Shown: one piece after another, positions 1-58,349 of the stretch | Layout: each line of letters begins with the position of its first letter | How positions within the stretch are numbered: position 1 is the first letter of the stretch | Source of the DNA: Candidatus Moranbacteria bacterium UBA2282 | GTDB lineage: Bacteria; Patescibacteriota; Minisyncoccia; Moranbacterales; UBA2206 | Assembly: GCA_002345745.1 (NCBI GenBank) | Contig: DDWQ01000005.1 | Location: 3,707 to 67,706 of the forward strand | Direction of reading: 5' to 3' | DNA length: 64,000 nucleotides | Notes under the pieces: generated by a model | Database searches by the model: none | Told to the model about the DNA's origin: nothing | Seen by the model: only the letters and a program-made list of their open reading frames with translations | Made by a program: the position numbers and the translations under genes

Positions 1-82
1 ATATCTGAGAACTTTTGTGTCAAACGGCTGCGGATTATTCCGTGGTTTTTTAATATCTAAAAAATAAAAAACAAACAAAAAA

Positions 83-3000
83 ATGCACAAAACAATCAAA
101 AACATAGGTGTCATAATTTTCATTGCTATCTTCGCCATTAGTCCCTTGCAAATTAATTTGCAAGCTCTTTCCAAAAATGTTGTAGTGGGTGAGACTTTGC
201 AATTAGAAGAATTATATATCAGCGAAAACACAACTTGGAACAATGATACCAATCTATCAAATTATGGAAACATCTATGTTGATTGGGGTGTAACTTTGAC
301 CATTGAAAAAGGAACACAACTAGCATTTCGTCATTTGCAGATCGATGGCAGCGTTGTTGCCAAAGGTACTAAAGAAGAAAAAATAAAATTAACCGGAATT
401 CCACTAACTTTTGAAGAAGGCGGACTGTATGATCCACGTTGTTCAATGTCGCCAACAGCCACGATTGAATTTAGCGCTCCTGGGGATTATGTGGAAGATC
501 CAGAATCTATTTTTGAATTTGTAGAATTTTCCCAAATGGGTGGAGAATATTCATATGATACAGACAATTGTCCAAGTCTAGGAATGAATAACAGTATCAA
601 AGATATGTTTTTTCCAACAGTCTATGCATCTCCGGTGAATCCAGTTGCTCCAGCTATGACTTTCTATTCAGGCCGAGTGAAAATGAGCAACTGTGATTTC
701 AAAAACAATGCCTATGCGGATATAAAAGTTGAGACGGAATATGGTGAATGGAATTCACAAAGTTATCTGCATATCGAAAACTCCAACTTCCAAAACAACT
801 CTCAAGATACAGCTGTCATAGCTAAAGTTACAAAACCAGATGTATATAGCTCACTTTTTGAAAGCTGTTTCAATGAATGCAAACTCAATTACCCAGATGA
901 CTATATGATTTATGGTCCAATTTGTAATAGCTATTGCACAAATGTCGCAGGCAGTGACCCGAGTTTTCATGACAAATCCAAAGTTCTTTTGAAAAACAAT
1001 TGGTATGGCGATTCAGCTGGTCCAGAAATTGAATCTGTGCCAAATGTGGGTGGGGAAAAACTAATTGGTGACTACACTTCAGAAAGTTGGAGTGCAACAG
1101 AAATTGAAAATTCTGTAGTGCCAGTGACGACTGGTGGAGCATCCAACGTCCTTTTTTTGCCAGGATTGGAGGCGAGTCGGTTGTATAAAGATGGAATAAC
1201 TGAAAATCAACTTTGGGAACCTAATCGCAATGATGATGTGGAGAAATTATTTTTGGATGAAAATGGAAAAAGTCTAAACCAAAATGTGTATACAAAAGAT
1301 ATACTTGATGAGGTAAATGTATCACTATTAGGACAAAAAAATATATATAAATCATTTGAAGCTGATTTGAAAAAGTGGAAAAATGATGACAAAATTATCA
1401 ATGATTATTCGGCTGTGCCATATGACTGGCGATTGTCGCTGGAAGATATTTTAGAGGGAGGCACAATTTCAGATGGAGATCATATCTCATATACTGGAAA
1501 ATCAATCGCACCATATATTATTCGCGAATTAAGAAGATTGGCGAAAACTTCCAAATCTGGCAAAGTGACTATTGTGGCACATTCCAATGGTGGACTGTTG
1601 GCAAAAGCTTTGACTAATAAATTAGGAGTAGAAGCTGAAAGTCTGATTGACAAGATTGTTATGGTGGCTGTGCCACAAGTTGGAACACCGCAAGCAATTG
1701 GTGGACTTTTGCATGGCTATGACCAAGGTTTGCCTGCAGATTGGCTACCTTTGCTTCTGTCGCCTAAAACTGCTCGAACATTGGCAAATAATATGTCGAG
1801 TGCGTATAATTTGCTTCCATCCAATGCATATTTCAATGGCAATGGTAGTGAAACAAGCACACCAGTTATTTCTTTTGAAAATGGATCACTCACGCAACCA
1901 TTCATCAATAAATATGGCAATGAAATTGACACCCCAACCAAATTACATAATTTTCTCTTGGACTCGGAGGGAAAAGTTTCAGTCGATTCAGATAATGTTG
2001 TCAGTCCAAGCACAATCAATGCAAAATTATTAGGCTATGCCAAAGATGTGCATCAATTACTTGATGATAATTGGTCAGTGCCATCATCAATTTCTGTCTA
2101 TCAAATTGCTGGTTTTGGCGAAGAGACACTGGGGAAAATACGATATTGGACAGGCATAGAATGTGTGAAAACATTTCACAGTTGGTGTTTGAAATATCAG
2201 CCAAAATTACAATATTCACCCGAAGTAGTCATTGATGGTGATGGTACAGTGGTAGCACCGAGTGCTTTGGCGATGAGTGCAGATGCAGAAAATGTGAAGA
2301 GGTTTTGGGTAGATTTAAAAAAATACGACACGCTTCTTAATTGGGAAAGAGAGCATGCTGATATTCTTGAAGTTTCAGAATTAAGAAGTTTCATCAAAGA
2401 CAATATTTTAACTCGAAAAAATACGGAATTCCCGCAATTTATTTCAGACTCAATGCCATCCAATAATTCCGAAAAACGCTTACATTACATTTTGCATTCG
2501 CCATTAGCACTTTCCGCACAGGACACATCTGGCAATGAAATTAGTGCTTCAGTTTCGACGATTCCTGGGGCAACATACAGACGCTTTGGCGAAGTGCAAT
2601 TCATCTCTTTGCCAGCTTCTGTGGCACACGCAGTGATGCTCACTGGACTGGCAGAAGGCTCATTCACATTGGAAATGCAGGAAGTGGAGAACGACGCCGT
2701 GGTGGCAGAAACAACTTTTGCCGGTATTCCATCTTCAGACAAAACCAAAGTCACAATAGAGGTGACTGACGGCACAATTGAAAATGCTTCACCACTGGCT
2801 GTGGATTTTGATGGAAACGGTGTAATTGAATTTTCACTAGAACCAAAAGTTGGTGAAACAATCACGCCACTTATTTTAGATCAAACTCCGCCAGAAGCCA
2901 GAATGTTTTTTGACACTCAGACTAATTTAATAAAGGTAGAAGGAATTGATGAAAATCCAACTACAGTGACCTATGCAACATCCATGATATCCAAAAAGAA

Positions 3001-3439
3001 TCAAAATCATAATGAAAGATATGCTAGCAAGGTGACCACAGCTACAGTTGCTGATCAGGCGGGAAATGTCACAATTCTCAAATATACAGAAAAGTTTGTG
3101 AATCATAATCGCAGAGTGGCTGTTGAGCTCAATTCAATCAGCTACAATGGCGTCGTGACCAATCTTTATGATACAATAGCAAAGTACAATTGGACTCTGG
3201 GCAGAAAAGATGAGGTATATAGAATGTTTGCGACCAATTTGCACACAGCCTCTAGTACAGTCGAATCACACTATCGACCAAAACAAAATATCACGATGAT
3301 TATGACGAGACCACAAGAACTAGATGATAATCGTGATGATGACAATGATGCTGATAGGCGAGCAACCAAACAAAAATTGGCAGGTCTAGTTATCCCTGCG
3401 CTGGTGACCAAACAGGGCGTAGTTGAGATTAAGTATTAA
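83..3439 (+). CDS. Large secreted alpha/beta-hydrolase-like surface protein (paralog A); N-terminal signal peptide, AHSNGG nucleophile-elbow motif (lipase/esterase-like)
   Basis: 1118-aa ORF with hydrophobic N-terminal signal (IGVIIFIAIFAISPLQ). Internal motif VTIVAHSNGGLLAKAL fits the G/A-H-S-x-G serine hydrolase elbow. A near-identical paralog lies at 35322..38666. Confidence 0.6.
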   Translation: MHKTIKNIGVIIFIAIFAISPLQINLQALSKNVVVGETLQLEELYISENTTWNNDTNLSNYGNIYVDWGVTLTIEKGTQLAFRHLQIDGSVVAKGTKEEKIKLTGIPLTFEEGGLYDPRCSMSPTATIEFSAPGDYVEDPESIFEFVEFSQMGGEYSYDTDNCPSLGMNNSIKDMFFPTVYASPVNPVAPAMTFYSGRVKMSNCDFKNNAYADIKVETEYGEWNSQSYLHIENSNFQNNSQDTAVIAKVTKPDVYSSLFESCFNECKLNYPDDYMIYGPICNSYCTNVAGSDPSFHDKSKVLLKNNWYGDSAGPEIESVPNVGGEKLIGDYTSESWSATEIENSVVPVTTGGASNVLFLPGLEASRLYKDGITENQLWEPNRNDDVEKLFLDENGKSLNQNVYTKDILDEVNVSLLGQKNIYKSFEADLKKWKNDDKIINDYSAVPYDWRLSLEDILEGGTISDGDHISYTGKSIAPYIIRELRRLAKTSKSGKVTIVAHSNGGLLAKALTNKLGVEAESLIDKIVMVAVPQVGTPQAIGGLLHGYDQGLPADWLPLLLSPKTARTLANNMSSAYNLLPSNAYFNGNGSETSTPVISFENGSLTQPFINKYGNEIDTPTKLHNFLLDSEGKVSVDSDNVVSPSTINAKLLGYAKDVHQLLDDNWSVPSSISVYQIAGFGEETLGKIRYWTGIECVKTFHSWCLKYQPKLQYSPEVVIDGDGTVVAPSALAMSADAENVKRFWVDLKKYDTLLNWEREHADILEVSELRSFIKDNILTRKNTEFPQFISDSMPSNNSEKRLHYILHSPLALSAQDTSGNEISASVSTIPGATYRRFGEVQFISLPASVAHAVMLTGLAEGSFTLEMQEVENDAVVAETTFAGIPSSDKTKVTIEVTDGTIENASPLAVDFDGNGVIEFSLEPKVGETITPLILDQTPPEARMFFDTQTNLIKVEGIDENPTTVTYATSMISKKNQNHNERYASKVTTATVADQAGNVTILKYTEKFVNHNRRVAVELNSISYNGVVTNLYDTIAKYNWTLGRKDEVYRMFATNLHTASSTVESHYRPKQNITMIMTRPQELDDNRDDDNDADRRATKQKLAGLVIPALVTKQGVVEIKY

Positions 3440-3457
3440 TTATTTTATTAAAAAAAT

Positions 3458-3874
3458 ATGACGAAAAAAAGTGTTCTTGTAGTCAACAGCATCGCAATTA
3501 TATTGCTTTTGACATTAGCTTATACGCAAAGCGGAACTAGCTGTTACTCAACTGTTTGGTGTAATAAACTTTGGGATGCTATCAATAGAGTAGGTGAAAT
3601 GTTATTTATTTTTATTCCAGTTTTACTTTTCTCCCTCATCACCTACAAAATGCGTGACGAAGTTTTTCAGGCTTGGTGGAAATTTGCCCGCTGGTTTGTG
3701 CCGGTGATTATGCTGGTTACTCTTCTAATCAACTCTCAAAGCCGAGGTGGTGGAATGGGTATCAGTGGTGCTATATCTAGTAGTTTCAACTTATTTATAA
3801 TTGGCATTTTCTACGCAATTTTTGTCATAACCTCTTTGGTCAAAATAACGCTGGCGTATCGGCGGGTGAAATAA
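3458..3874 (+). CDS. Small polytopic membrane protein (paralog A of 38685..39095); C-terminal 80 aa identical between copies
   Basis: 138-aa ORF, 18 bp downstream of the hydrolase gene, with multiple hydrophobic segments. The 3' ~250 bp is identical to the second copy. Confidence 0.55.
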   Translation: MTKKSVLVVNSIAIILLLTLAYTQSGTSCYSTVWCNKLWDAINRVGEMLFIFIPVLLFSLITYKMRDEVFQAWWKFARWFVPVIMLVTLLINSQSRGGGMGISGAISSSFNLFIIGIFYAIFVITSLVKITLAYRRVK

Positions 3875-3991
3875 ATTTAATCAATGCAAAAAAGTTGAAC
3901 TTTTAAGTTAGCACGGCTAGTGCAAATGTTTAACATTGAAAATGTGTGATTAAATACAAAAAAAGAACTAGCCTGTGCTAATTCTTTGTAT

Positions 3992-4065: not shown

Positions 4066-4134
4066 CATATTATGTCGTCGCAAAACGACTCCTAATTTAA
4101 AATTATAAATTTAAAATTTAAAATTAATTTCGGG

Positions 4135-10128: not shown

Positions 10129-10458
10129 ATGAATTTTGAAGAATATCAAAAGGAAGTGAATAAACATGCTGTGTATCCTATAGTAGGTAAGAAATTTGTG
10201 TATCCTGTTTTGGGCTTGGTTGGTGAAGCGGGTGAGGTGGCAGAAAAAATCAAGAAAATTTTGCGGGACAACGATGGTAATGTTTCAGAGGAACAGAAAA
10301 ATGAGATAAAAAAAGAACTTGGTGATGTATTGTGGTATCTATCGCAATTAGCAATTGACTTGGAAATATCGTTAGATGATGTTGCAAGTTGTAATATTGA
10401 AAAAATAAAAAGTCGAAGGGAACGTGGCGTGGTAAAGGGAATCGGTGATAATAGGTAA
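10129..10458 (+). CDS. MazG-like nucleotide pyrophosphohydrolase
   Basis: 109 aa with paired EXXE-type motifs (GLVGEAGEVAEKI, ELGDVLWYLSQLA) typical of the all-alpha NTP pyrophosphatase family. Confidence 0.7.
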   Translation: MNFEEYQKEVNKHAVYPIVGKKFVYPVLGLVGEAGEVAEKIKKILRDNDGNVSEEQKNEIKKELGDVLWYLSQLAIDLEISLDDVASCNIEKIKSRRERGVVKGIGDNR

Positions 10459-12329: not shown

Positions 12330-13316
12330 TTATTTCATAAACTTCGCCACTTCTTTTTGCATATCGGAATATTTTTCTAGCCAGATGATTCGCTTGTCTT
12401 TGGAAAACCAAGTCATCTGGCGTTTGGCGTAATCTTTTTCCGCCAGATAGACTTTTTCGTAGAGCTCTTCTAGTATGATTTTCTTTTGCAAGTATTCCGG
12501 CATCCAAAAATAGCCCAAGCCGAAGCTCTGGATTTTTTCCCAACTCAATCCTTGTCGGTGGAGTTTTTCCGTTTCTGCTAGCATTCCATCGCTCCAGCGT
12601 GCATCTAGACGTGCTTTGATTCTGGCGTGCAGGGTTTCTTTCGGTACGGAGACCCCGATTTGCAAAAATTGGTATTTGGTATTTGGTATTTGGTATTTTG
12701 TATCTGGAACATGTCCGAGTGATCCGCAAATTTCGATAGCTCTGATTAAACGAACTTTATTTTTAGCATCAATATCCTTTGCGCGTCTTGGGTCGAGTTT
12801 TTTTAATCGAGAAAATAATTCTTCTGTTGATTCTTTGTCTAATTCTTTACGCAACTGCCAATCTGGTTCAACTTCCGGATAAGCGATGTTGTCCACAATC
12901 GATTTGATCCAGAAACCGGTGCCACCGCACAAAATCGGCAGCTTGCCACGGCGCAAAATGTCTGCGATAACTTTATCTGCTTGTTGCTTAAACTCAGCAG
13001 CGCTGAAAGTGTCTTGAGGATTAACAATATCAATCATATAATGCGGAATGCCTTCAGACATAAAAATATCTTTTGTATTTTGTATCTTGTATTTTGTATC
13101 TTGTTTGGTGCTTGGTGTTTGGTGTTTGATGTTTGCATCCCTGATGACTTTACCAGTGCCTATGTCCATTCCACGATAAATCTGCCGTGAATCCACGGAC
13201 ACGATTTCACCATCAAATTCTCGAGCAAGTTTAATCGCCACTGCGGATTTTCCGGCTGAAGTTGGACCTAATATCACAACAATTTTGTTTGATTGTATTT
13301 TTTTGATAGATGTCAT
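12330..13316 (-). CDS. miaA: tRNA dimethylallyltransferase MiaA, carrying two in-frame heptamer-repeat insertions
   Basis: P-loop ILGPTSAGKSAVAIKLA and SVDSRQIYRGMDIGTGK motifs. Extra peptide tracts HQTPSTKQDTKYKIQNTKD and TKYQIPNTKYQ are encoded by 7-nt tandem repeats. Confidence 0.85.
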   Translation of the reverse strand: MTSIKKIQSNKIVVILGPTSAGKSAVAIKLAREFDGEIVSVDSRQIYRGMDIGTGKVIRDANIKHQTPSTKQDTKYKIQNTKDIFMSEGIPHYMIDIVNPQDTFSAAEFKQQADKVIADILRRGKLPILCGGTGFWIKSIVDNIAYPEVEPDWQLRKELDKESTEELFSRLKKLDPRRAKDIDAKNKVRLIRAIEICGSLGHVPDTKYQIPNTKYQFLQIGVSVPKETLHARIKARLDARWSDGMLAETEKLHRQGLSWEKIQSFGLGYFWMPEYLQKKIILEELYEKVYLAEKDYAKRQMTWFSKDKRIIWLEKYSDMQKEVAKFMK

Positions 13317-13402: not shown

Positions 13403-14818
13403 TTAAACCAGCTCTCCTTCCAAATTCCAAATATTGGCCTTCGTAATTTTCACTTTCGCAAATTGTCCGACGAGATTTTTCTTAGAAGAAATTATTTTCA
13501 CATTTTTGCCAGTGCGGGTTTTGCCGAAATATATATTATTTTTTTCTTTTCTTGCCACGTGGTCCGATTTGTCGGACTTTACGTGGTCGATCAACACTTC
13601 CTGCACGGTATTTTTATATTTTTTATTATGGGCGAAAGTGGTTTTTTTCAGAATTTCATTTAGGAATTGTTCTCGGTGTTCTTTTTCGGTCTTGGAAACA
13701 TCATCTTTCATCTTCCAAGCAACTGTGCCGGGGCGGGGTGAAAATTGACCGAAGAAAACTAGATCATATTTGGCTTTGTGCATAATTTCCGCGGACTGCA
13801 TAAATTGCTTTTTAGTTTCACCGGGGAAACCGACAATAATGTCAGAAGTCAACGCAAACGGTGTATTAGGTTTATACGCTTTAAAGGAAATTTTTATTTT
13901 TCTAACTAAATTCAGATAATGCTTAATGGTGTATTTGCGATTCATTTTTTGCAAAATTTCATCTGAACCGGACTGAATTGGTAGATGTACCAACTCACAC
14001 ACTTTTCTTGATTTGGCAATTACTTCAATCAGTTCGTCCGACATATCTTTCGGATGTGAAGACACAAATTGAATCCAAAATTTTCCAGGAATAGCATTGA
14101 TTTTTTTAAGCAACTGCGGAAAACTTACGGTTCTGTAGGGGTGAAACCCCTTTGTAGGGGTTTCACCCCTGCTGTCACAATAGCTGTTCACATTTTGTCC
14201 CAAGAGCGTAATTGATTTGTAACCATCTTTGATCAAGTCTTTTATTTCAGTAATTATTTCAGTGGCTGGGCGGGAAGTCTCACGACCGCGAGCATAGGGA
14301 ACAACGCAATAGGAGCAGAAGTTATTACAGCCGGTCATTATCGGAACAAAAGCCTGGAAGGCGTTGGTATATTGGGGATTAATAGACAGATAATCAATGT
14401 TTTCTTTAGTCAGGTGGTTATTGCTTTGTTCCGAAATTTTCAATTTTAAATTTTCAATTTTTAATGAATTTTCAATGACAAAATTTTCAAACAATCCAAA
14501 TTTGTTGATTGGAAAAAATAAATCCACCTTATTTTTCAGTCTTCGTTGCACATCTTTGCGATTGGCGAGGCAACCAGTTAAAACAATCTGCAGTGGTTTT
14601 TTTTCCGCCACAGATTTCTTTTTGAGATTATGGATTTGTCCATAGACGCGGTCTTCTGCCATTTGTCGCACGCCACAAGTATTAAAAATAACTAAATCAG
14701 CCTCCGCAATCTTTGAGGCTAGCTTGTAATTTCGATCTTCCAAGAATCCCGCAATTCGCTCGGAATCGGAAATATTCATTTGGCAACCGAAAGTTTTGAT
14801 AAAATATTTTTTAGACAT
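13403..14818 (-). CDS. miaB: tRNA-i6A37 methylthiotransferase MiaB, with in-frame palindromic insertion
   Basis: UPF0004 N-terminal domain FIKTFGCQMN, radical-SAM CNNFCSYCVVP, TRAM C-terminus. A perfect 15-bp inverted repeat at 14141-14174 adds about 10 residues (GETPTKGFHPY) in frame. Confidence 0.85.
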   Translation of the reverse strand: MSKKYFIKTFGCQMNISDSERIAGFLEDRNYKLASKIAEADLVIFNTCGVRQMAEDRVYGQIHNLKKKSVAEKKPLQIVLTGCLANRKDVQRRLKNKVDLFFPINKFGLFENFVIENSLKIENLKLKISEQSNNHLTKENIDYLSINPQYTNAFQAFVPIMTGCNNFCSYCVVPYARGRETSRPATEIITEIKDLIKDGYKSITLLGQNVNSYCDSRGETPTKGFHPYRTVSFPQLLKKINAIPGKFWIQFVSSHPKDMSDELIEVIAKSRKVCELVHLPIQSGSDEILQKMNRKYTIKHYLNLVRKIKISFKAYKPNTPFALTSDIIVGFPGETKKQFMQSAEIMHKAKYDLVFFGQFSPRPGTVAWKMKDDVSKTEKEHREQFLNEILKKTTFAHNKKYKNTVQEVLIDHVKSDKSDHVARKEKNNIYFGKTRTGKNVKIISSKKNLVGQFAKVKITKANIWNLEGELV

Positions 14819-22962: not shown

Positions 22963-25365
22963 GTGTGCAAAATAAAATTTATGAAAAAAATAAAAAAGAT
23001 TATTTGTTCTAAAAAAAATCTAAAACGAGATATCAGTATCATCACACTTTCTTTGTTGTTGGCGGTCTCAGTTGTCAAAGCTGGCAACTTGGATTCCATT
23101 AGCAGTCCGAGTGCTACGGGATATACCTTGACCGATATCTATCAAAGATTGACAACCAATCAAAGTGCAAATGACAGCGAACATATTTTTTCACCGTTAG
23201 CTGATCCGTCCGCTAGCTTTCATACATTAAAAGAAATTTATGAATCCATTCCAACTATTGAAGCGAGCAAAGTTAAATTAGGCACAGATTATTTGGGAAT
23301 TTCTGGAACTCTTTTACCAAGTGGAGGGACAACTGATGCTGGCAATGTGCTAAGTGGCAAAACTTTTTTTGGCAATAATCAAACTGATTGGACTTTGCAA
23401 ACTGGATCAATGCCTAACATTGGACAACAAGTTTTGACTCCTGGAATTGTCGATCAAATCATTACTCTCGGTTATCACGATGGCACTGGAAAAGTTGTCG
23501 GTGACACTGACTTAATTTCTGGCAATATCAGAAGCGGAATCAATCTTTTTGGAATAGACGGTGATTCTGACGTGGTGGACACATCATCAGGAACGGCAAT
23601 TGCTAATGAATTGGTGTCAGGAAAAAAAGCGTGGGTTGGTGGGGTTGAACTTACTGGCATGTTAGCGAATATTGGACAGCAAATTCTCACCCCTGGAATA
23701 ATAAATCAGACAATTACTTCAGGATATCATAATGGTACAGGATATGTTTTAGGTGACACTGAGTTGATTTCAACTAACATTAAAAGCGGAGTAAATATTT
23801 TCGGAGTTGCTGGTGATTCTAATGTGGTCGACACTTCTTCGGGAGATGCTGTCGCGGGAAACTTGTTGTCCGGGAAAAAAGCTTGGGTGGACGGTGCAGA
23901 AGTCACGGGAAATTTTGCTTCGCAAGAAAAAACCGCAACCACTGAAGGCGAGCAAATAACGCCAGACTCTGGTAATTGGCTGTCCAAAGTTACAATAGCA
24001 ATAACAAATTTAATTACGGGAAATATTAAAAAATCAGTCACGGTTGGTGGTGTGGCAGGAACTTATTCAGGTTTTCCGGGAACTGGTTGGACACCTAATG
24101 GGTCTGGCGATGGTTCAACTGCACTCACTCAAACTATTTGTGAAGCGCAGGGTGCCAATTGGAAATGGTTTGAAGATGCCAACGGAGATGGCGATACAAT
24201 TGATCCAGAAGATGGAATTTGCATTAAGACTGCAACTATCACATCAGATTCTTGGAATGGTGCGGAACAAATGAATGGCTATGTTTTGGCTGACACAACT
24301 ATGGCCTCTGGAACTTCAAATTCCGTGACAGTTGCTGGCACACCATGGGTAGCAGATCGCTATAAAAATGAAATTGTGAAAATCATCTCCGGAACAGCTT
24401 CGCCTTGTTGGGGAATTGTGAAAACCAACACCACAAACACCATCACAGTTTTTGGCTCTTGGTTGCAATCAACCTATGCGGCTTGTGCGACAACTCCAGA
24501 TGCCACTTCACACATTCAAGTTTTTGATGATAATAAATTCGACAATTCTTTTATTGGAGATTATTCTTGTGCTGGAAATTTTCCAAGCGGAACAGTGACA
24601 CTTGGATCGTATCCCACAAGCGGCACAATTGCTTTGGCAGTAACGGATTGCTATGACGGCAAAAGGGATTTATTACCTAATGAAACTGATCGAGCGGTGC
24701 TCTCTGGCACAGTAACGACGACCGATGCCACTTCAGTGACTGATTCTGATCAAGCAATGTCAGTTAACGTCTGGATAGGACAAAAAGTTTTGATTACAGG
24801 CGGAACAGGCAGTGGTTCATATGGAGTTGTGGAAAGCAACACTGGAACAAAATTGACGGTCGCTAGTTGGAGCGGAACAGCACCTGATGTTGCATCAACT
24901 TTCAAAATTATTTATATTTTGCCTCGGTCAGCTTATGTTGGTACGGCAGGAATGTCACAAATTATTGGTGGCACAAGTGATGATGTCAAAGCTGGTCAAG
25001 GACCACTTGCGGAGAAACAACTAAAAGAATGGGTCGGCACAAAACTTCCAACCTCGCAAGATTTTTTCGGTTTTTGTGGTGCCACTTCTGGTGATGCTGA
25101 TGGAACTGCTGGTGGCAGCACATATAGTTCCTCTGGTGCTTCGACTAATAGCACAATTGGAAATTATGGATCTAATGTTGGTAGAGGAAAAAACGCTGCG
25201 CCGAATGATGAATATATGGATCTTTCTAATAGCGGTTCTTGGGAGTGGCTTTCAGAGCAGCACAGTGGCAGTGGTGCTCGGGTTGCCGGCAATAGCGCTT
25301 GCTCGTACTTCGGTAGTTCTAATGTCAACAGTGGCTATCGGTTCAGAGCGGTGTTTCGCCCCTAA
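22963..25365 (+). CDS. DGR target protein: secreted/anchored protein with three tandem ~80-aa repeats and a C-terminal C-type-lectin-like variable region
   Basis: N-terminal signal/anchor. Repeated blocks NIGQQ(V/I)LTPGI...GD(S/T)(D/N)VVDTSSG...SGKKAWV. C-terminus ...NSACSYFGSSNVNSGYRFRAVFRP contains the VR that matches the TR downstream. Confidence 0.85.
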   Translation: MCKIKFMKKIKKIICSKKNLKRDISIITLSLLLAVSVVKAGNLDSISSPSATGYTLTDIYQRLTTNQSANDSEHIFSPLADPSASFHTLKEIYESIPTIEASKVKLGTDYLGISGTLLPSGGTTDAGNVLSGKTFFGNNQTDWTLQTGSMPNIGQQVLTPGIVDQIITLGYHDGTGKVVGDTDLISGNIRSGINLFGIDGDSDVVDTSSGTAIANELVSGKKAWVGGVELTGMLANIGQQILTPGIINQTITSGYHNGTGYVLGDTELISTNIKSGVNIFGVAGDSNVVDTSSGDAVAGNLLSGKKAWVDGAEVTGNFASQEKTATTEGEQITPDSGNWLSKVTIAITNLITGNIKKSVTVGGVAGTYSGFPGTGWTPNGSGDGSTALTQTICEAQGANWKWFEDANGDGDTIDPEDGICIKTATITSDSWNGAEQMNGYVLADTTMASGTSNSVTVAGTPWVADRYKNEIVKIISGTASPCWGIVKTNTTNTITVFGSWLQSTYAACATTPDATSHIQVFDDNKFDNSFIGDYSCAGNFPSGTVTLGSYPTSGTIALAVTDCYDGKRDLLPNETDRAVLSGTVTTTDATSVTDSDQAMSVNVWIGQKVLITGGTGSGSYGVVESNTGTKLTVASWSGTAPDVASTFKIIYILPRSAYVGTAGMSQIIGGTSDDVKAGQGPLAEKQLKEWVGTKLPTSQDFFGFCGATSGDADGTAGGSTYSSSGASTNSTIGNYGSNVGRGKNAAPNDEYMDLSNSGSWEWLSEQHSGSGARVAGNSACSYFGSSNVNSGYRFRAVFRP

Positions 25366-25366
25366 G
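25247..25366 (+). repeat. DGR variable repeat (VR), last 39 codons plus stop of the target gene
   Basis: 120-bp match to 26470-26589 with 17 mismatches, every one at a TR adenine (TR AAT/AAC codons versus VR AGT/GGC/GGT/TTC etc.). Confidence 0.9.
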
Positions 25367-25415
25367 TTTTTTCCCGTCAAAATATTTGATGATTTGGTGA
25401 TTTGGATAATTTGAG

Positions 25416-25540
25416 TACCGCGAATTACGCAGATTTAAACTAATTCCGCTAATTTAAATACCGCGAATTACGCAGATTTAAACTAATCCCGCTAATTTAA
25501 ATACCGCGAATTACGCAGATTTAAACTAATTCCGCTAATT
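25416..25540 (+). repeat. Tandem direct repeat, 43-bp unit x ~3 (TACCGCGAATTACGCAGATTTAAACTAATTCCGCTAATTTAAA)
   Basis: Copies start at 25416, 25459 and 25502. One C/T difference between copies. The third copy is truncated at the GxxExxY start codon. Confidence 0.9.
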
Positions 25541-26342: not shown

Positions 26343-26469
26343 GGTCTCAGAGAGAGCGCAGAAGACGGGAATTACAGTCCGACTCACTGTTTTTGTAAAA
26401 CAGTATATTCGACAAAAGGCTTACACATTTTTTGTGATAGCTTCCGAATTTTGAAAGTAGACGGACAAT

Positions 26470-26589
26470 GGCTTTCAGAGCAGCACAATAACAATAATGC
26501 TCGGATAGCCGGCAATAACGCTTGCTCGAACTTCAATAATAATAATGTCAACAATGGCAATCGGTTCAGAGCGGTGTTTCGCCCCTAAG
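26470..26589 (+). repeat. DGR template repeat (TR), non-coding, rich in AAT/AAC
   Basis: Direct repeat of the VR. Contains adenines at all 17 variable positions. Ends 14 bp from the RT stop codon. Confidence 0.9.
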
Positions 26590-31265: not shown

Positions 31266-31390
31266 ATTTTAAATAACCAATAACCAAGAAACAATCACCA
31301 AACAAATTTCAAGTTCCAATAATCAAAGTTTGAATATTTGATTATTGAATATTATTTGATTATTGTATCTTGTTTCTTGTATCTTGTGAG
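31266..31390. repeat. Imperfect ~55-bp-arm inverted repeat built from heptamer units (AACCAAT.../...TTGTATCTTGT)
   Basis: Left arm AAATAACCAATAACCAAGAAACAATCACC...CCAATAATCAAAG. Right arm TTTGATTATTG...TTGTATCTTGTTTCTTGTATCTTGTG. Located in the intergenic region upstream of rnc. Confidence 0.6.
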
Positions 31391-34730: not shown

Positions 34731-35197
34731 ATGAAAAAAACAATCCAAAACCAAATAATTATTTACGAAGGAGACAACGGTGAATCTCGTATAGAAGTAA
34801 AATTTGAAGGTGAAACAGTTTGGCTTTCGCAATCACAATTGGTTGAACTTTTTGGATCAAGTAAGGCTAATATAAGCGAGCATATTAAAAATATCTATAC
34901 AGAAAAAGAATTGGCACTGGAAGCAACTGTTCGGAATTTCCGAACAGTTAAAAAAGAGGGTAATAGAAAGGTTTCTAGGGATGTTGAGCATTATAATCTT
35001 GATATGATTATTTCACTATTTCAAAATCAACCGGAAGAAAAATTTTGGATGATGCTGGCAAGGTAAGTCATGAGAAAGCTACGGAAAAAGCTAGTTTGGA
35101 GTATCGCAAGTACAAAGCAAGGAATTTGAGCGAGGTTGAGAAATCTTATTTGGAAACTATAAAAGGTATAGAAAAAAAGATTGTCAAAAAATCATAG
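34731..35197 (+). pseudogene. RhuM-family (virulence/DOC-like) gene remnant with internal deletion and frameshift
   Basis: N-terminal 95 aa (IIIYEGDNGESRIEVKFEGETVWLSQSQLVELFGSSKANISEHIKNIY...YNLDMIIS) matches the RhuM N-terminal domain. The reading frame terminates at 35066. A second frame from about 35003 encodes the RhuM C-terminal tail (ILDDAGKVSHEKATEKASLEYRKYKARNLSEVEKSYLETIKGIEKKIVKKS). Confidence 0.65.
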
Positions 35198-35321
35198 TCC
35201 AGCTTTGAAAATTCCGCACTAGTATTTGAGTAATTGGGGTGTGGATGATATTATAAGGGTAGCAATAATTCATGAATTTATTCAGTAATAAATTCAGTAA
35301 TTAATTTATTAAAACAAAAAA

Positions 35322-38300
35322 ATGCACAAAACAATCAAAAACATAGGTGTCATAATTTTCATTGCTATCTTCGCCATTAGTCCCTTGCAAATTAATTTGC
35401 AAGCTCTTTCCAAAAATGTTGTAGTGGGTGAGACTTTGCAATTAGAAGAATTATATATCAGCGAAAACACAACTTGGAACAATGATACTAATCTATCAAA
35501 TTATGGAAACATCTATGTAGATTGGGGTGTGACTTTGACCATTGAAAAAGGAACGCAATTAGCATTTCGTCATTTGCAGATCGATGGCAACGTTGTTGCC
35601 AAAGGCACTAAAGAAGAAAAAATAAAATTAACCGGAATTCCACTAACTTTTGAAGATGATGGATCATATGACCCGCGTTGTTTTATGTCGCCAACGGCTA
35701 CGATTGAATTTAGCGCTCCTGGGGATTATATTGAAGATCCAGAATCTATTTTTGAATTTGTAGAATTTTCCCAAATGGGTGGAGAATATTCATATGATAC
35801 AGACGATTGTCCAAGTCTAGGAATGAATAACAGCATCAAAGATATGTTTTTTCCAACAGCCTATGCATCTCCTGTGAATCCAGTTGCTCCAGCTATGACC
35901 ATCTATTCAGGCCGAGTGAAAATGAGCAACTGTGATTTCAAAAACAATGCCTATGCGGATATAAAAGTTGAGATGGAATATGGTGAATGGAATTCACAAA
36001 GTTATCTGCATATCGAAAACTCCAACTTCCAAAACAACTCTCAAGATACAGCTGTCATAGCTAAAGTTACAAAACCAGATGTATATAGCTCACTTTTTGA
36101 AAACTGTTTTAATGAATGCAAACTCAATTATCCAGATGACTATATGATTTATGGTCCGATTTGTAATAACTATTGCACAAATGTCGCAGGCAGTGACCCG
36201 AGTTTTCATGACAAATCCAAAGTTCTTTTGAAAAACAATTGGTATGGCGATCCAGCTGGTCCAGAAATTGAATCCGCGCCAAATGTGGGTGGAGAAAAAC
36301 TAATTGGTGACTATACTTCAGAAAGTTGGAGCGCCACAGAAATTGAAAATTCTGTAGTGCCGGTGACGACTGGTGGAGCATCTAATGTTCTTTTCTTGCC
36401 AGGGTTGGAGGCGAGTCGGTTGTATAAGGATGGAATAACTGAAAATCAACTTTGGGAACCTAATCGCAATGATGATGTAGAAAAATTATTTTTGGATGCC
36501 AATGGGAAAAGTCTAAATCAAAATGTGTATACAAAGGATGTTCTTGATGAGGTAAATGTATCGCTATTAGGACAAAAAAATATCTATAAATCATTTGAAG
36601 CTGATTTGAAAAAGTGGAAAAATGATGACAAAATTATTAACGATTATTCAGCTATTCCGTATGATTGGCGATTGTCCCTAGAAGATATTCTAGAGGGAGG
36701 CACAATTTCAGATGGAGATCATATCTCATATACTGGAAAATCAATCGCGCCATATATTATTCGCGAGTTAAGAAGATTGGCGGAAACTTCCAAATCTGGC
36801 AAAGTGACTATTGTGGCACATTCCAATGGTGGGTTAGTGGCAAAAGCTTTGACTAACAAATTGGGAGCAGAGGCTGAAAGTCTGATTGACAAGATTGTTA
36901 TGGTGGCCGTGCCACAAGTTGGAACACCGCAAGCAATCGGTGGACTTTTACATGGCTATGACCAAGGCTTGCCAGCAGATTGGCTACCTTTGCTTTTGTC
37001 TCCTAAAACTGCTCGAACATTGGCAAATAATATGCCGAGTGCGTATAATCTGCTCCCATCAAATGCATATTTCAATGGCAATGGCAGTGAAACAAGCACA
37101 CCAGTTATTTCTTTTGAAAATGGAACACTCACACAGTCATTCATCAATAAATATGGCAATGAAATTAACACCCCAACCAAATTACATAATTTTCTCTTGG
37201 ACTCGGAGGGAAAAGTTTCAGTCGATTCAGATAATGTTGTCAGTCCAAGCACAATTAATGCAAAATTGTTAGGCTATGCCAAAGATGTGCATCAATTACT
37301 TGATGACAATTGGTCAGTGCCATCATCAATTTCTGTCTATCAAATTGCTGGCTTTGGGGAGGAGACACTGGGAAAAATACGATATTGGACAGGCATAGAA
37401 TGTGTGAAAACATTTCACAGTTGGTGTTTGGAGTATCAGCCAAAATTACAATATTCACCCGAAGTAGTCATTGATGGTGATGGCACTGTGGTGGCACCGA
37501 GTGCGTTGGCGATGAGCACAGATGCAGAAAATGTGAAGAGGTATTGGGTGGATTTGGATGATTACAACGATGTCTTTACAATGAAAAGAGAACACGCAGA
37601 TATTTTAGAAGTTCCATGGTTGCGAAATTTTATTAAGGATAACATCTTAACTCAGTCATCAACATCTTTTCCTCAATTTATTTCCGATTCAAAACCATCT
37701 AATAAATCCGAAAAACGTTTGCATTACATTTTGCATTCGCCATTAGCACTTTCCGCGCAGGACACATCTGGCAATGAAATTAGTGCTTCAGTTTCGACGA
37801 TTCCTGGAGCGAATTACAAACGCTTTGGCGAAGTGCAATTCATCTCTTTGCCAGCTTCTGTGACACACACAGTGATGCTCACTGGACTGGCAGAAGGCTC
37901 ATTCACATTGGAAATGCAGGAAGTGGAGAATGACGCCGTGGTGGCAGAAACAACATTTGCCGGTATTCCATCTTCAGACAAAACCAAAGTCACAATGGAG
38001 GTGACTGATGGCACAATTGAGAATGCTTTGCCACTAGCTGTGGATTATGATGGAAACGGTGTAATTGAATTTTCACTAGAACCAAAAGTTGGTGAAACAA
38101 TCACACCACCCGCTTTGGATCAAACTCCGCCAGAAGCCAGAATGTTTTTTGACACCAAAACAAATTTAATAGTAGTGGAAGGCGTGGATGAAAATCCAAC
38201 GACAGTGGTATATTCCACAGCACCAAAATTTAAAAAGAATCAGAAGCAAAAAGACAAAATAACCACAGCCACAATCACTGACCAAGTAGGAAATGTCACT

Positions 38301-38666
38301 GTGCTAACATATATCGAAAAAGCTCCAAATTATGAACGAAGAATTGCCGTTGAAGTGAAGTCTGTGAGTTACAATGGCGTTGTGACCAATCTTTATGATA
38401 CAATAGCAAAGTACAATTGGACTCTGGGCAGAAAAGATGAGATATACAGAATGTTTGCGACTCATCTTCGCACATCTTCTAGCACGATTGAATCACATTA
38501 TCGACCAAAACAAAATATCACGATGATTATGACGAGACTGCAAGAGCTAGATGACAATCGTGATGATGACAATGATGCTGATAGGCGAGCAATCAAGCAA
38601 AAATTAGCAGGTTTAGTTATTCCTGCACTGGTAACTAAACAAGGTGTGGTTGAGATTAAATATTAA
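35322..38666 (+). CDS. Large secreted alpha/beta-hydrolase-like surface protein (paralog B)
   Basis: 1114-aa ORF, about nine in ten residues identical to 83..3439 by eye. Same AHSNGG motif. Divergence is concentrated near the C-terminal third. Confidence 0.6.
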   Translation: MHKTIKNIGVIIFIAIFAISPLQINLQALSKNVVVGETLQLEELYISENTTWNNDTNLSNYGNIYVDWGVTLTIEKGTQLAFRHLQIDGNVVAKGTKEEKIKLTGIPLTFEDDGSYDPRCFMSPTATIEFSAPGDYIEDPESIFEFVEFSQMGGEYSYDTDDCPSLGMNNSIKDMFFPTAYASPVNPVAPAMTIYSGRVKMSNCDFKNNAYADIKVEMEYGEWNSQSYLHIENSNFQNNSQDTAVIAKVTKPDVYSSLFENCFNECKLNYPDDYMIYGPICNNYCTNVAGSDPSFHDKSKVLLKNNWYGDPAGPEIESAPNVGGEKLIGDYTSESWSATEIENSVVPVTTGGASNVLFLPGLEASRLYKDGITENQLWEPNRNDDVEKLFLDANGKSLNQNVYTKDVLDEVNVSLLGQKNIYKSFEADLKKWKNDDKIINDYSAIPYDWRLSLEDILEGGTISDGDHISYTGKSIAPYIIRELRRLAETSKSGKVTIVAHSNGGLVAKALTNKLGAEAESLIDKIVMVAVPQVGTPQAIGGLLHGYDQGLPADWLPLLLSPKTARTLANNMPSAYNLLPSNAYFNGNGSETSTPVISFENGTLTQSFINKYGNEINTPTKLHNFLLDSEGKVSVDSDNVVSPSTINAKLLGYAKDVHQLLDDNWSVPSSISVYQIAGFGEETLGKIRYWTGIECVKTFHSWCLEYQPKLQYSPEVVIDGDGTVVAPSALAMSTDAENVKRYWVDLDDYNDVFTMKREHADILEVPWLRNFIKDNILTQSSTSFPQFISDSKPSNKSEKRLHYILHSPLALSAQDTSGNEISASVSTIPGANYKRFGEVQFISLPASVTHTVMLTGLAEGSFTLEMQEVENDAVVAETTFAGIPSSDKTKVTMEVTDGTIENALPLAVDYDGNGVIEFSLEPKVGETITPPALDQTPPEARMFFDTKTNLIVVEGVDENPTTVVYSTAPKFKKNQKQKDKITTATITDQVGNVTVLTYIEKAPNYERRIAVEVKSVSYNGVVTNLYDTIAKYNWTLGRKDEIYRMFATHLRTSSSTIESHYRPKQNITMIMTRLQELDDNRDDDNDADRRAIKQKLAGLVIPALVTKQGVVEIKY

Positions 38667-38684
38667 TTATTTTTTATTAAAAAT

Positions 38685-39095
38685 ATGAGCAAAAAAAGTA
38701 TCTTAGTCGTTTCATCTGTGTACGTTGTTTGTTTCGTTGCGGGTTTCTTAGCTAGTTTATTGTGCGAATCTAGTAAATGCAGAATATATGATGATAGTGT
38801 TTTAGGTTGGATATTACTTAATTTTATTTTTCTTATTCCAGTTTTCCTTTTCTCCCTCATCACCTACAAAATGCGTGACGAAGTTTTTCAGGCTTGGTGG
38901 AAATTTGCCCGCTGGTTTGTGCCGGTGATTATGCTGGTTACTCTTCTAATCAACTCTCAAAGCCGAGGTGGTGGAATGGGTATCAGTGGTGCTATATCTA
39001 GTAGTTTCAACTTATTTATAATTGGCATTTTCTACGCAATTTTTGTCATAACCTCTTTGGTCAAAATAACGCTGGCGTATCGGCGGGTGAAATAA
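38685..39095 (+). CDS. Small polytopic membrane protein (paralog B)
   Basis: 136 aa. N-terminal half diverged from 3458..3874; C-terminal 80 aa identical. Confidence 0.55.
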   Translation: MSKKSILVVSSVYVVCFVAGFLASLLCESSKCRIYDDSVLGWILLNFIFLIPVFLFSLITYKMRDEVFQAWWKFARWFVPVIMLVTLLINSQSRGGGMGISGAISSSFNLFIIGIFYAIFVITSLVKITLAYRRVK

Positions 39096-45487: not shown

Positions 45488-45579
45488 TAAATTTAGTTAA
45501 GTAATTTTTTAAATAATAATTTAGGTTATAGTCGGTAGCTTATTAATAGACTACAAACTACAAACCACAAACTAATCAA

Positions 45580-58195: not shown

Positions 58196-58349
58196 TTCTG
58201 GGCTGTGGATAACTCACCCTTGCCATTGTGGCAGAGTGGAGTAGAATAGGGAGGTAGGCAATACAAGTGGGGCGAAGTGGATAATCACCCTACGAATTAC
58301 GAATACGCTACGCTTTACGAATGTACGAATTATACGAATAAAAAATTAT

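Follow-up and report, generated by a model that had tools for sequence, protein, structure and literature searches.

A probable REP/REPIN-like palindromic doublet in frame within the miaB gene of a Candidatus Moranbacteria genome

Rickettsia palindromic elements (RPEs) were reportedly described by Ogata et al. in 2000, and one of them, RPE-1, is roughly 100–150 bp long and Rickettsia-specific. Doublets of repetitive extragenic palindromes (REPs), known as REPINs, are said by Bertels and Rainey to be mobilized by REP-associated tyrosine transposases (RAYTs). The genomes of the candidate phyla radiation (CPR), or Patescibacteria, are small and, in the usual description, streamlined. Here we analyze a stretch of 64,000 nucleotides (hereafter the window) from the metagenome-assembled genome (MAG) of Candidatus Moranbacteria bacterium UBA2282, in which a perfect palindrome lies in frame within the tRNA-modification gene miaB. 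In our view this element is likely to be a miniature REP/REPIN-like doublet that belongs to a RAYT-associated hairpin class found across the CPR and that has become fixed, with the frame kept, in a permissive loop of MiaB. An earlier note on this DNA had likened the behavior of the palindrome to that of RPEs, and the in-frame palindromic insertion, the multicopy relatives and the empty orthologues described below support that comparison; the element behaves like an RPE but falls outside the RPE families of Rickettsia.

REPs are built of units with 6–13 bp stems, mostly 2–3 nt loops and a GTAG-type tag, form dimers and measure 20–40 nt, while in REPtrons the transposase gene is flanked by such repeats, the ends of which can supply its TAG stop codon (PMC3733652). 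Intragenic REPs form a minority, encode 20–30 residues and stand out in Opitutus terrae and Rickettsia conorii; intragenic dimers are on record from further bacteria too, and the intragenic repeats of R. conorii have been equated with RPE-4 and RPE-6 and counted as CGTC type (PMC3733652). The repeats around TIRYT transposases carry the motif GGGGWSAS (Di Nocera 2013, PMC3733652; Quentin et al. 2018, PMC6006769). In a limited literature search we found no paper joining RAYTs, REPINs or REPs to the CPR or Patescibacteria.

The miaB element resembles these systems in several respects. Its unit is a short GC-rich stem-loop with a 6-bp stem and a 3-nt loop, as in REPs, and its two inverted units fold as one hairpin with a 15-bp stem and a 4-nt loop, as in REPINs; the GT that stands before AGGGG gives GTAG, the AG of which is, however, paired in the stem; the hairpin class comes in genome-specific variants with one core per genome; its units flank RAYT-like Y1 genes and can supply their TAG stop; and intragenic dimers have already been described among REPs. 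Like the RPEs, the element is a palindromic repeat that stands in frame in housekeeping genes and is read through in a surface loop, with tRNA-modification and DNA-repair genes among the hosts of its class. Unlike them, it measures 34–36 nt, has another unit structure and resides in Moranbacteria, so that by size and host it falls outside the RPEs, and its unit most resembles the GTAG type rather than the CGTC type of RPE-4 and RPE-6. As for the TIRYT repeats, the commonest members of the hairpin class (GGGGTCAG...) fit GGGGWSAS, and the Y1 protein at one of the loci that we retrieved (L121) has a domain, Bac_DnaA_C, that is typical of this subclass, whereas the GGGGTGAA of the window fits only 7 of the 8 positions and the Y1 proteins of the CPR, of about 215 aa, are without a DnaA-like domain.

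The palindrome and the MiaB loop that it encodes

The element is a perfect inverted repeat of 34 nt, AGGGGTGAAACCCCT-TTGT-AGGGGTTTCACCCCT, on the + strand at 14137–14170 (in context, CTGT AGGGGTGAAACCCCT TTGT AGGGGTTTCACCCCT GCTG). A perfect 15-bp inverted repeat with a TTGT spacer had been reported in the earlier note, and it is indeed present, with arms complementary at 15 of 15 positions and a spacer of 4 nt, although it lies 4 nt further left than the 14141–14174 given there. Each arm is in itself a small hairpin of the form AGGGGT-N3-ACCCCT. The first unit (AGGGGTGAAACCCCT, 14137–14151) has its own 6-bp stem, AGGGGT/ACCCCT, and the 3-nt loop GAA, and the second (AGGGGTTTCACCCCT, 14156–14170) is its exact reverse complement, the two differing only by the inversion of the 3-nt loop (GAA versus TTC). 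GT precedes both units on the + strand, giving GTAGGGG at each. The spacer TTGT (14152–14155; ACAA on the coding strand) is the sole part that varies freely among the orthologous copies (ACAA, CTAG, CTGA and TTAA).

This is the longest perfect short-loop inverted repeat of the window. In 30 shuffles of the window the longest inverted repeat measured 9–11 nt, with 14 nt in one of them, and the 13-mer core of the palindrome is confined to its two arms within the window, where 0.37 matches at up to 2 mismatches are expected by chance. Folded as RNA, the 48-nt region forms a stem of 15 bp and a loop of 4 nt (−29.9 kcal/mol, z = −6.8). There is no T-run and no terminator-like call at the site, and the palindrome has no Rfam match, so that its reading as an intrinsic terminator or a known structured RNA was dropped.

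The host gene is an open reading frame (ORF) of 471 aa on the − strand (13403–14818), the homologues of which, from Candidatus Moranbacteria and other Patescibacteria, are annotated as MiaB; its Pfam architecture is intact, with UPF0004 at residues 4–101, Radical_SAM at 158–344 and TRAM at 399–471. The codons of the element, AGG GGT GAA ACC CCT ACA AAG GGG TTT CAC CCC TAC, encode RGETPTKGFHPY (R217–Y228) and keep the frame. Comparison codon by codon with an empty orthologue (L001) and with three filled ones (L132, L002 and L003) delimits an insert of 36 nt, or 12 codons, on the − strand at 14135–14170, made up of the doublet and AC. At its left junction stands an extra AGC codon (Ser216; 14171–14173, − strand), which is missing from L132 and L002 and which probably arose by slippage of a CAG triplet. 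The insert amounts to 12–13 residues when compared with the nearest empty orthologues, and to 8 when compared with the solved MiaB of Bacteroides uniformis (7MJZ); the earlier estimate of about 10 residues, added without breaking the frame, was right about the frame and not about the size. Similarly, the element had been assigned to the linker between the radical-SAM and TRAM domains, whereas it lies inside the Pfam Radical_SAM domain (158–344), with TRAM beginning only at residue 399.

An AlphaFold model of MiaB, made with 41 homologues, reached a mean predicted local distance difference test score (pLDDT) of 76 and has four segments with a pLDDT below 50, namely residues 119–151, 164–176, 217–227 and 416–424. 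Residues 164–176 are the cluster-binding loop of MiaB, and residues 217–227 coincide exactly with the peptide of the element, with confident strands on either side. Placing the insert on a structure, as had been suggested, thus puts it in a low-confidence loop, and the loop of 7MJZ is 8 residues shorter at the same position. In the model, the peptide forms a surface loop of the radical-SAM core and is predicted to be disordered. With the ORF and its domains intact, and with orthologues that are empty at this loop, the locus has the in-frame insertion at a permissive site that is characteristic of RPEs.

Filled and empty sites, dispersed copies and RAYT-like genes

We surveyed the 120 best homologues of MiaB; in 106 of them the segment that follows the invariant GQNVNSY could be parsed. 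A short basal loop, SYxDGKINF, was present in 24 of these, and 77 of the 106 carried an extra 4 to 37 residues at the loop. The nearest relative among the 120, P0002 (84% identity), is empty at this site, which reads GAC GGC AAA ATC GAT TTT, and the empty-site peptide in close orthologues is SYSDGKIDF. This alignment of orthologues, which the earlier note had proposed, therefore identifies the element as an insertion, since P0002 and 23 others retain the short basal loop.

The same kind of peptide was found in three further homologues, the DNA of which forms hairpins of the same geometry and at the same nucleotide junction: GAC [AGGGGTGAAACCCCT CTAG AGGGGTTTCACCCCT AC] AAG in L132 (P0003), GAC [AGGGGTGAAATCCCT CTGA AGGGGTTTCACCCCT AC] AAA in L002 (P0006), and GAC AAA [AGGGATCCGATCCCT TTAA AGGGATCGGATCCCT AC] AGC in L003 (P0011), the last with an extra AAA codon at the left junction. 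Orthologues with these residues and without palindromic DNA would have spoken for a simple lineage-specific loop; all three carry palindromic DNA. The four copies, including that of the window, are 15-bp/4-nt hairpins of −27 to −30 kcal/mol, and in their alignment 100% of the cells are paired, with 5 pairs changed on both sides, all from L003, and one G-U pair. A neighbor-joining tree joins the empty P0002 and the filled P0003 as sisters and puts P0006 and P0011 elsewhere, in clades that also hold empty sites and different cassettes, indicating that gains, losses or replacements have occurred. The sequence ACAG flanks the window copy, and no target-site duplication is common to it and the copies in L132, L002 and L003. 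Nor does the element have the structure of a miniature inverted-repeat transposable element, in which terminal inverted repeats bound an internal segment and a target-site duplication is present; here the hairpin is the whole element. The genes miaB and miaA are adjacent in the window, and in the P0003 genome two genes stand between them (L132, 2611–4219), one with a Bro-N domain and one without a Pfam match, a segment that looks like a small mobile or phage-derived insertion.

Doublets of the class are also dispersed within and between genomes. The 12-kb contig L003 carries the doublet AGGGATCSGATCCCT three times, all in frame, at 2577–2610 in miaB and at 3481–3521 and 3894–3930 in miaA. Its core differs from that of the window, with full compensation, and is the same in the miaB copy and both miaA copies, a pattern that points to family-wide homogenization or turnover and not to site-by-site compensation. 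A scan of one genome per species with the pattern AGGGGTNNNACCCCT-N1-8-AGGGGTNNNACCCCT returned at least 119 stretches in many phyla, including at least 12 loci in CPR genomes. Among the matches listed, the commonest form was AGGGGTCAGACCCCT...AGGGGTCTGACCCCT, which is multicopy and mostly intergenic in Lachnospiraceae and occurs also in Omnitrophota, Planctomycetes and Actinomycetota, and about half of the CPR matches lay within identified genes. The exact arms of the window, with the loop GCGC, were present in a cyanobacterial MAG (L010), the unit AGGGGTTTCACCCCT occurred twice, in direct order and in frame, in a ligA gene of Parcubacteria (L070 = L131), and a Levyibacteriota MAG held at least 4 doublets on 4 contigs together with a Y1 gene. 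According to Pfam, the genes that host the class in frame encode MiaA (L087), PheT (L065), LigA (L070), the 2-oxoacid:ferredoxin oxidoreductase POR (L025), an Hsp70-family protein (L078) and a PMT-like glycosyltransferase (L005). The search for copies that had been suggested for the window or genome thus yielded none more in the window, but found them in relatives and other genomes, with three in L003, two in ligA and others flanking RAYT-like genes. Phages were dismissed as a vehicle, with the hairpin class present in 1 of 2.9 million viral contigs. The Lachnospiraceae (L006–L122), among them Dorea sp. D27, Faecalicatena, Mediterraneibacter, Extibacter and Lachnospiraceae CE91-St61, have AAAGGGGTCAGACCCCT-N6-8-AGGGGTCTGACCCCTTT in many copies, and the hairpins there frequently reach about 25 bp; this 15-mer doublet is also found in MAGs of Omnitrophota, Planctomycetes, Solirubrobacterales and Proteobacteria.

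In Falkowbacteria (L013 = L124), an ORF with the motif AYCLNPNHFHLLL contains a doublet in frame; this doublet, AGGGGTTTAACCCCT TTAAG AGGGGTTAAACCCCT (2570–2604 of L013, 3357–3391 of L124), lies inside the RAYT-like gene itself, just before the HUH motif. We used this ORF as a query, and then a custom hidden Markov model (HMM), to search the pattern-fetched loci and the window; six distinct loci fetched by the pattern proved to hold Y1 transposase ORFs. All of the Y1 ORFs scanned match Pfam Y1_Tnp, and the best NCBIfam model for them is the REP-associated tyrosine transposase, with scores below its cut-off. Units of the form AGGGGT-N3-ACCCCT abut the Y1_Tnp genes in L130, L099, L120 and L121. 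The gene in L130 (3617–4315) has TTAGGGGTTTAACCCCT before it, its TAG stop inside TAGGGGTTAAACCCCT and another unit after it, and these units differ from those of the window at 1 of 15 nt. The RAYT-like gene of L099, a complete Lachnospiraceae genome, has doublets on both sides, and in L120 and L121 the units touch the end of the Y1 gene.

Because the loci had been fetched by the hairpin pattern, which makes its association with Y1 genes potentially circular, we retested it from the L130 protein sequence alone. Homologues of this protein number more than 7000, and all those that bear a name belong to the CPR (Saccharibacteria, Daviesbacteria, Levybacteria, CPR1 and Patescibacteria). Two homologues were fetched by protein alone, L137 (CPR1) and L138 (Daviesbacteria), and in both the hairpin class occurs within 100 nt of the gene, as AAGGGGTTTAACCCTT...AAGGGGTTAAACCCTT upstream of the Y1 gene in L137 and as AGGGGTTCAACCCCT 40 nt upstream in L138, where the stop codon also lies in a degenerate unit. 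The hairpin class is linked to RAYT-like genes in the CPR and in other phyla. The RAYT-flanking relatives read TTAG, ATAG or AAAG at the start of the unit, and the units of the window have GTAG, with AG paired in the stem.

Origin of the miaB element

The explanation that we favor takes the palindrome to be two 15-nt hairpin units (constant stem AGGGGT/ACCCCT, loop GAA or TTC) in palindromic arrangement around a 4-nt spacer. By analogy with the REP/RAYT and IS200/IS605 systems, such hairpins would be recognized on single-stranded DNA, cut next to the foot of the stem and copied in trans to new sites without target duplication, and the element may thus have been mobilized by a RAYT-like enzyme. 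A copy would have landed, or been inherited, between Asp215 and the next codon of miaB, in a surface loop of the radical-SAM barrel, and would have survived there because it is 36 nt long and read in a stop-free frame as a Gly/Pro-rich, disordered dodecapeptide. It would then be a passenger and no working part of MiaB. The family may be active at present in the source genome, where the element may also be a full member of the REPs, and the element may affect the mRNA.

Several observations weigh against a recently mobile REP-like doublet. The window holds one copy in 64 kb; no Y1 transposase was found in it, either by tblastn or by the custom HMM run on the ORFs of all six frames; and the matches listed in the genome scan included no other exact doublet in Moranbacteria, nor did a metagenome scan for GAA/TTC-type doublets, in which none of the 9 loci was a further exact doublet. 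The unit of 15–17 nt and the doublet of 34–36 nt are smaller than REPs (20–40 nt) and typical REPINs, the base-pairing of AG leaves the tag only partly separate from the stem, and both tags point the same way, in a head-to-tail order that is rare in classical REPs. Other lineages, in addition, have acquired heptamer arrays and an inverted duplication of local sequence at the MiaB loop, which is therefore indel-prone whatever the mechanism. Furthermore, the window, L132 and L002 have in common a left junction of GAC with AGGGG and a right junction of CCCTAC with A, and these identical junctions are explained by vertical inheritance from long ago no less well than by a recent transposition. The arms of the window are identical to those of L132 at 30 of 30 positions and to those of L002 at 29 of 30, whereas the identity of the miaB genes is 78% and 70%, respectively, and only 58% and 48% at third codon positions. 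By our own arithmetic, the chance of this identity over the whole arms is about 7e-4 for L132 and 3e-4 for L002, and that of ten invariant third positions about 4e-3 and 6e-4. The arms are thus conserved beyond synonymous expectation, unlike a decaying fossil, and a constraint on the hairpin itself is possible. The element also departs from REPs in being intragenic instead of predominantly extragenic, in having a CPR host and in the sub-threshold NCBIfam RAYT scores of the Y1 proteins, while the many dispersed copies expected of a REP, absent from the window, are found in L003 and the Levyibacteriota MAG.

The conservation of the arms raises the possibility, which we regard as unlikely, of a domesticated hairpin, that is, a vertically inherited palindrome kept by selection on the nucleic acid, either for pausing, processing or stability of the mRNA or as a protein site on the DNA. 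All ten third positions of the arms are invariant in the window, L132 and L002 (against the gene-wide 0.58 and 0.48) while the spacer varies freely, the single arm change in L002 retains a G-U pair in the sense RNA, in the L003 copy every cell is paired and 5 pairs are compensated in full, and the three genomes with the GAA/TTC variant have the same junctions. On the other hand, the sister P0002, which keeps the basal loop, and most Moranbacteria are without the element, the L003 core is shared with two miaA copies and so looks like family-wide homogenization, neither an Rfam match nor a terminator-like feature was found, and the comparison comprises four sequences of a kind in which palindromic mobile DNA mimics covariation too. 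We doubt, likewise, that the miaB hairpin is held at the orthologous site by a function of its own, as a co-translational pause or in mRNA processing for a radical-SAM enzyme with two clusters, or as a chromosomal site for a RAYT-like protein; if it were, the MiaB and MiaA loops of the CPR would be recurrent landing pads, rewritten in frame by a CPR-wide RAYT/hairpin system together with replication slippage. The conservation of the arms may reflect selection acting on the hairpin, insertion repeated at one and the same site, or conversion, three readings that are inseparable here.

An origin on the spot, by template switching, snap-back synthesis or quasipalindrome correction in an indel-prone loop and with no relation to a transposase, is improbable for the window element. 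Such mutations do produce perfect inverted repeats in coding DNA, and a clear case stands at the same MiaB site in L133 (P0016 type), where a perfect 15-bp palindrome, TGAATTCTTATCGAT-TT-ATCGATAAGAATTCA (10240–10271), has the conserved host V-N-S-Y coding sequence as its left arm and an inverted copy of adjacent DNA as its right arm; it is a textbook signature of local template switching. Heptamer arrays at the loop in other lineages, and the presence of some insert in 77 of the 106 homologues, are likewise in keeping with local change. In the window, by contrast, both arms are unlike the empty-site sequence and unlike its flanks, and local inverted duplication was discarded for this element on that ground; the same or near-identical units, moreover, occur in unrelated genes and genomes and beside RAYT-like genes, and three copies with an identical core occupy three sites in L003. 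Finally, that the element is a chance palindrome or an assembly artefact in an ordinary lineage-specific loop is scarcely credible, for although the window has a single copy and its source is a MAG, shuffles never reach 15 bp and the same arms occur in three independent assemblies from different projects (the NCBI MAG, ENA ERZ27313544 and JGI 3300014205), which effectively refutes this reading.

The CPR genomes thus possess a RAYT-like transposase family that is widespread and has AGGGGT-N3-ACCCCT as its simple cognate hairpin; the hairpins are often translated inside essential genes, and a few MiaB and MiaA loops have been struck repeatedly. Many of the "lineage-specific loops" of the CPR may be repeat-derived, and such loops mark permissive sites for protein engineering and can mislead alignment, phylogeny and gene calling. 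They also make a compact system for studying REP-type persistence in very small genomes. The miaB locus is a clean example and introduces no new principle, with behavior like that of RPEs but in a CPR phylum for which the limited literature search gave no report of such behavior.

Other insertions in MiaB and MiaA and further repeats of the window

Other cassettes occupy the MiaB loop in other lineages. In L135 the loop holds the heptamer array (CATGGAA)x4, encoding GTWNMEHGT, in L134 it holds two copies of a hairpin-plus-tail element encoding SPSPEGEGARRADE, and the DKNSS...AKED cassette of the L133 type was present in 7 of the homologues examined. Survival in a permissive loop is the common filter, and it is fed by several mutational sources.

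Elsewhere in miaB of the window, a heptamer array (GAAAATT on the coding strand; 14435–14465, − strand) lies in the linker between UPF0004 and the radical-SAM domain, within the low-confidence segment 119–151, and a second lineage-variable insert, HVKSDKSDHV (13556–13585, − strand), lies in the TRAM domain, where it corresponds to the imperfect palindrome CACGTAAAGTCCGACAAATCGGACCACGTG and to the low-confidence loop 416–424. At the site of the TRAM insert, L003 has a different perfect palindrome, of 17 bp, that encodes GSKSP...GLLEP, a peptide also found in P0024 and P0028.

The heptamer inserts that had been attributed to miaA are real. One is an array of TTGGTAT, 5.6 copies long, at 12669–12707 (− strand), which encodes TKYQIPNTKYQ; since three heptamers make seven codons, such arrays yield peptides with a 7-residue period. 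The other consists of two adjoining arrays, KHQTPSTKQDTKYKIQNTK, at 13071–13135 (− strand). The proposal that miaA, too, has tolerated inserts is borne out by other CPR genomes, in which the same two MiaA sites hold palindromic doublets: the first in L003 and L087, the second in L003, with L087 empty at the second and L002 empty at both. Tandem arrays with a 7-nt period are frequent in the window and, besides those of miaA and miaB, which stand in frame, occur at 4094–4125, 31272–31301, 31363–31387, 45550–45574 and 58291–58332.

The window contains further repeats away from miaB. A 3.4-kb duplication (73–3472 and 35312–38699) has 91% identity and is followed by 277 nt more at 98.6%. Each copy has a large ORF, for a protein of about 1115 aa in which an LCAT-like alpha/beta-hydrolase domain is recognized, and an ORF of 136–138 aa without a Pfam match; a perfect palindrome of 20 nt, CTTGCAAATTAATTTGCAAG, stands just before the large ORF in both copies (145–164 and 35384–35403). 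Just upstream of the second copy lies a 111-aa ORF (34731–35066) with a weak match, below the Pfam cut-off, to the N-terminus of the RhuM virulence-protein family and with a 12-bp perfect palindrome at 34925–34949. A 43-nt unit is repeated 3.1 times with 95% identity at 25407–25540, directly after an 800-aa ORF without a Pfam match, and a 121-nt segment at 25246–25366 recurs 1.2 kb away at 26469–26589 with 86% identity.

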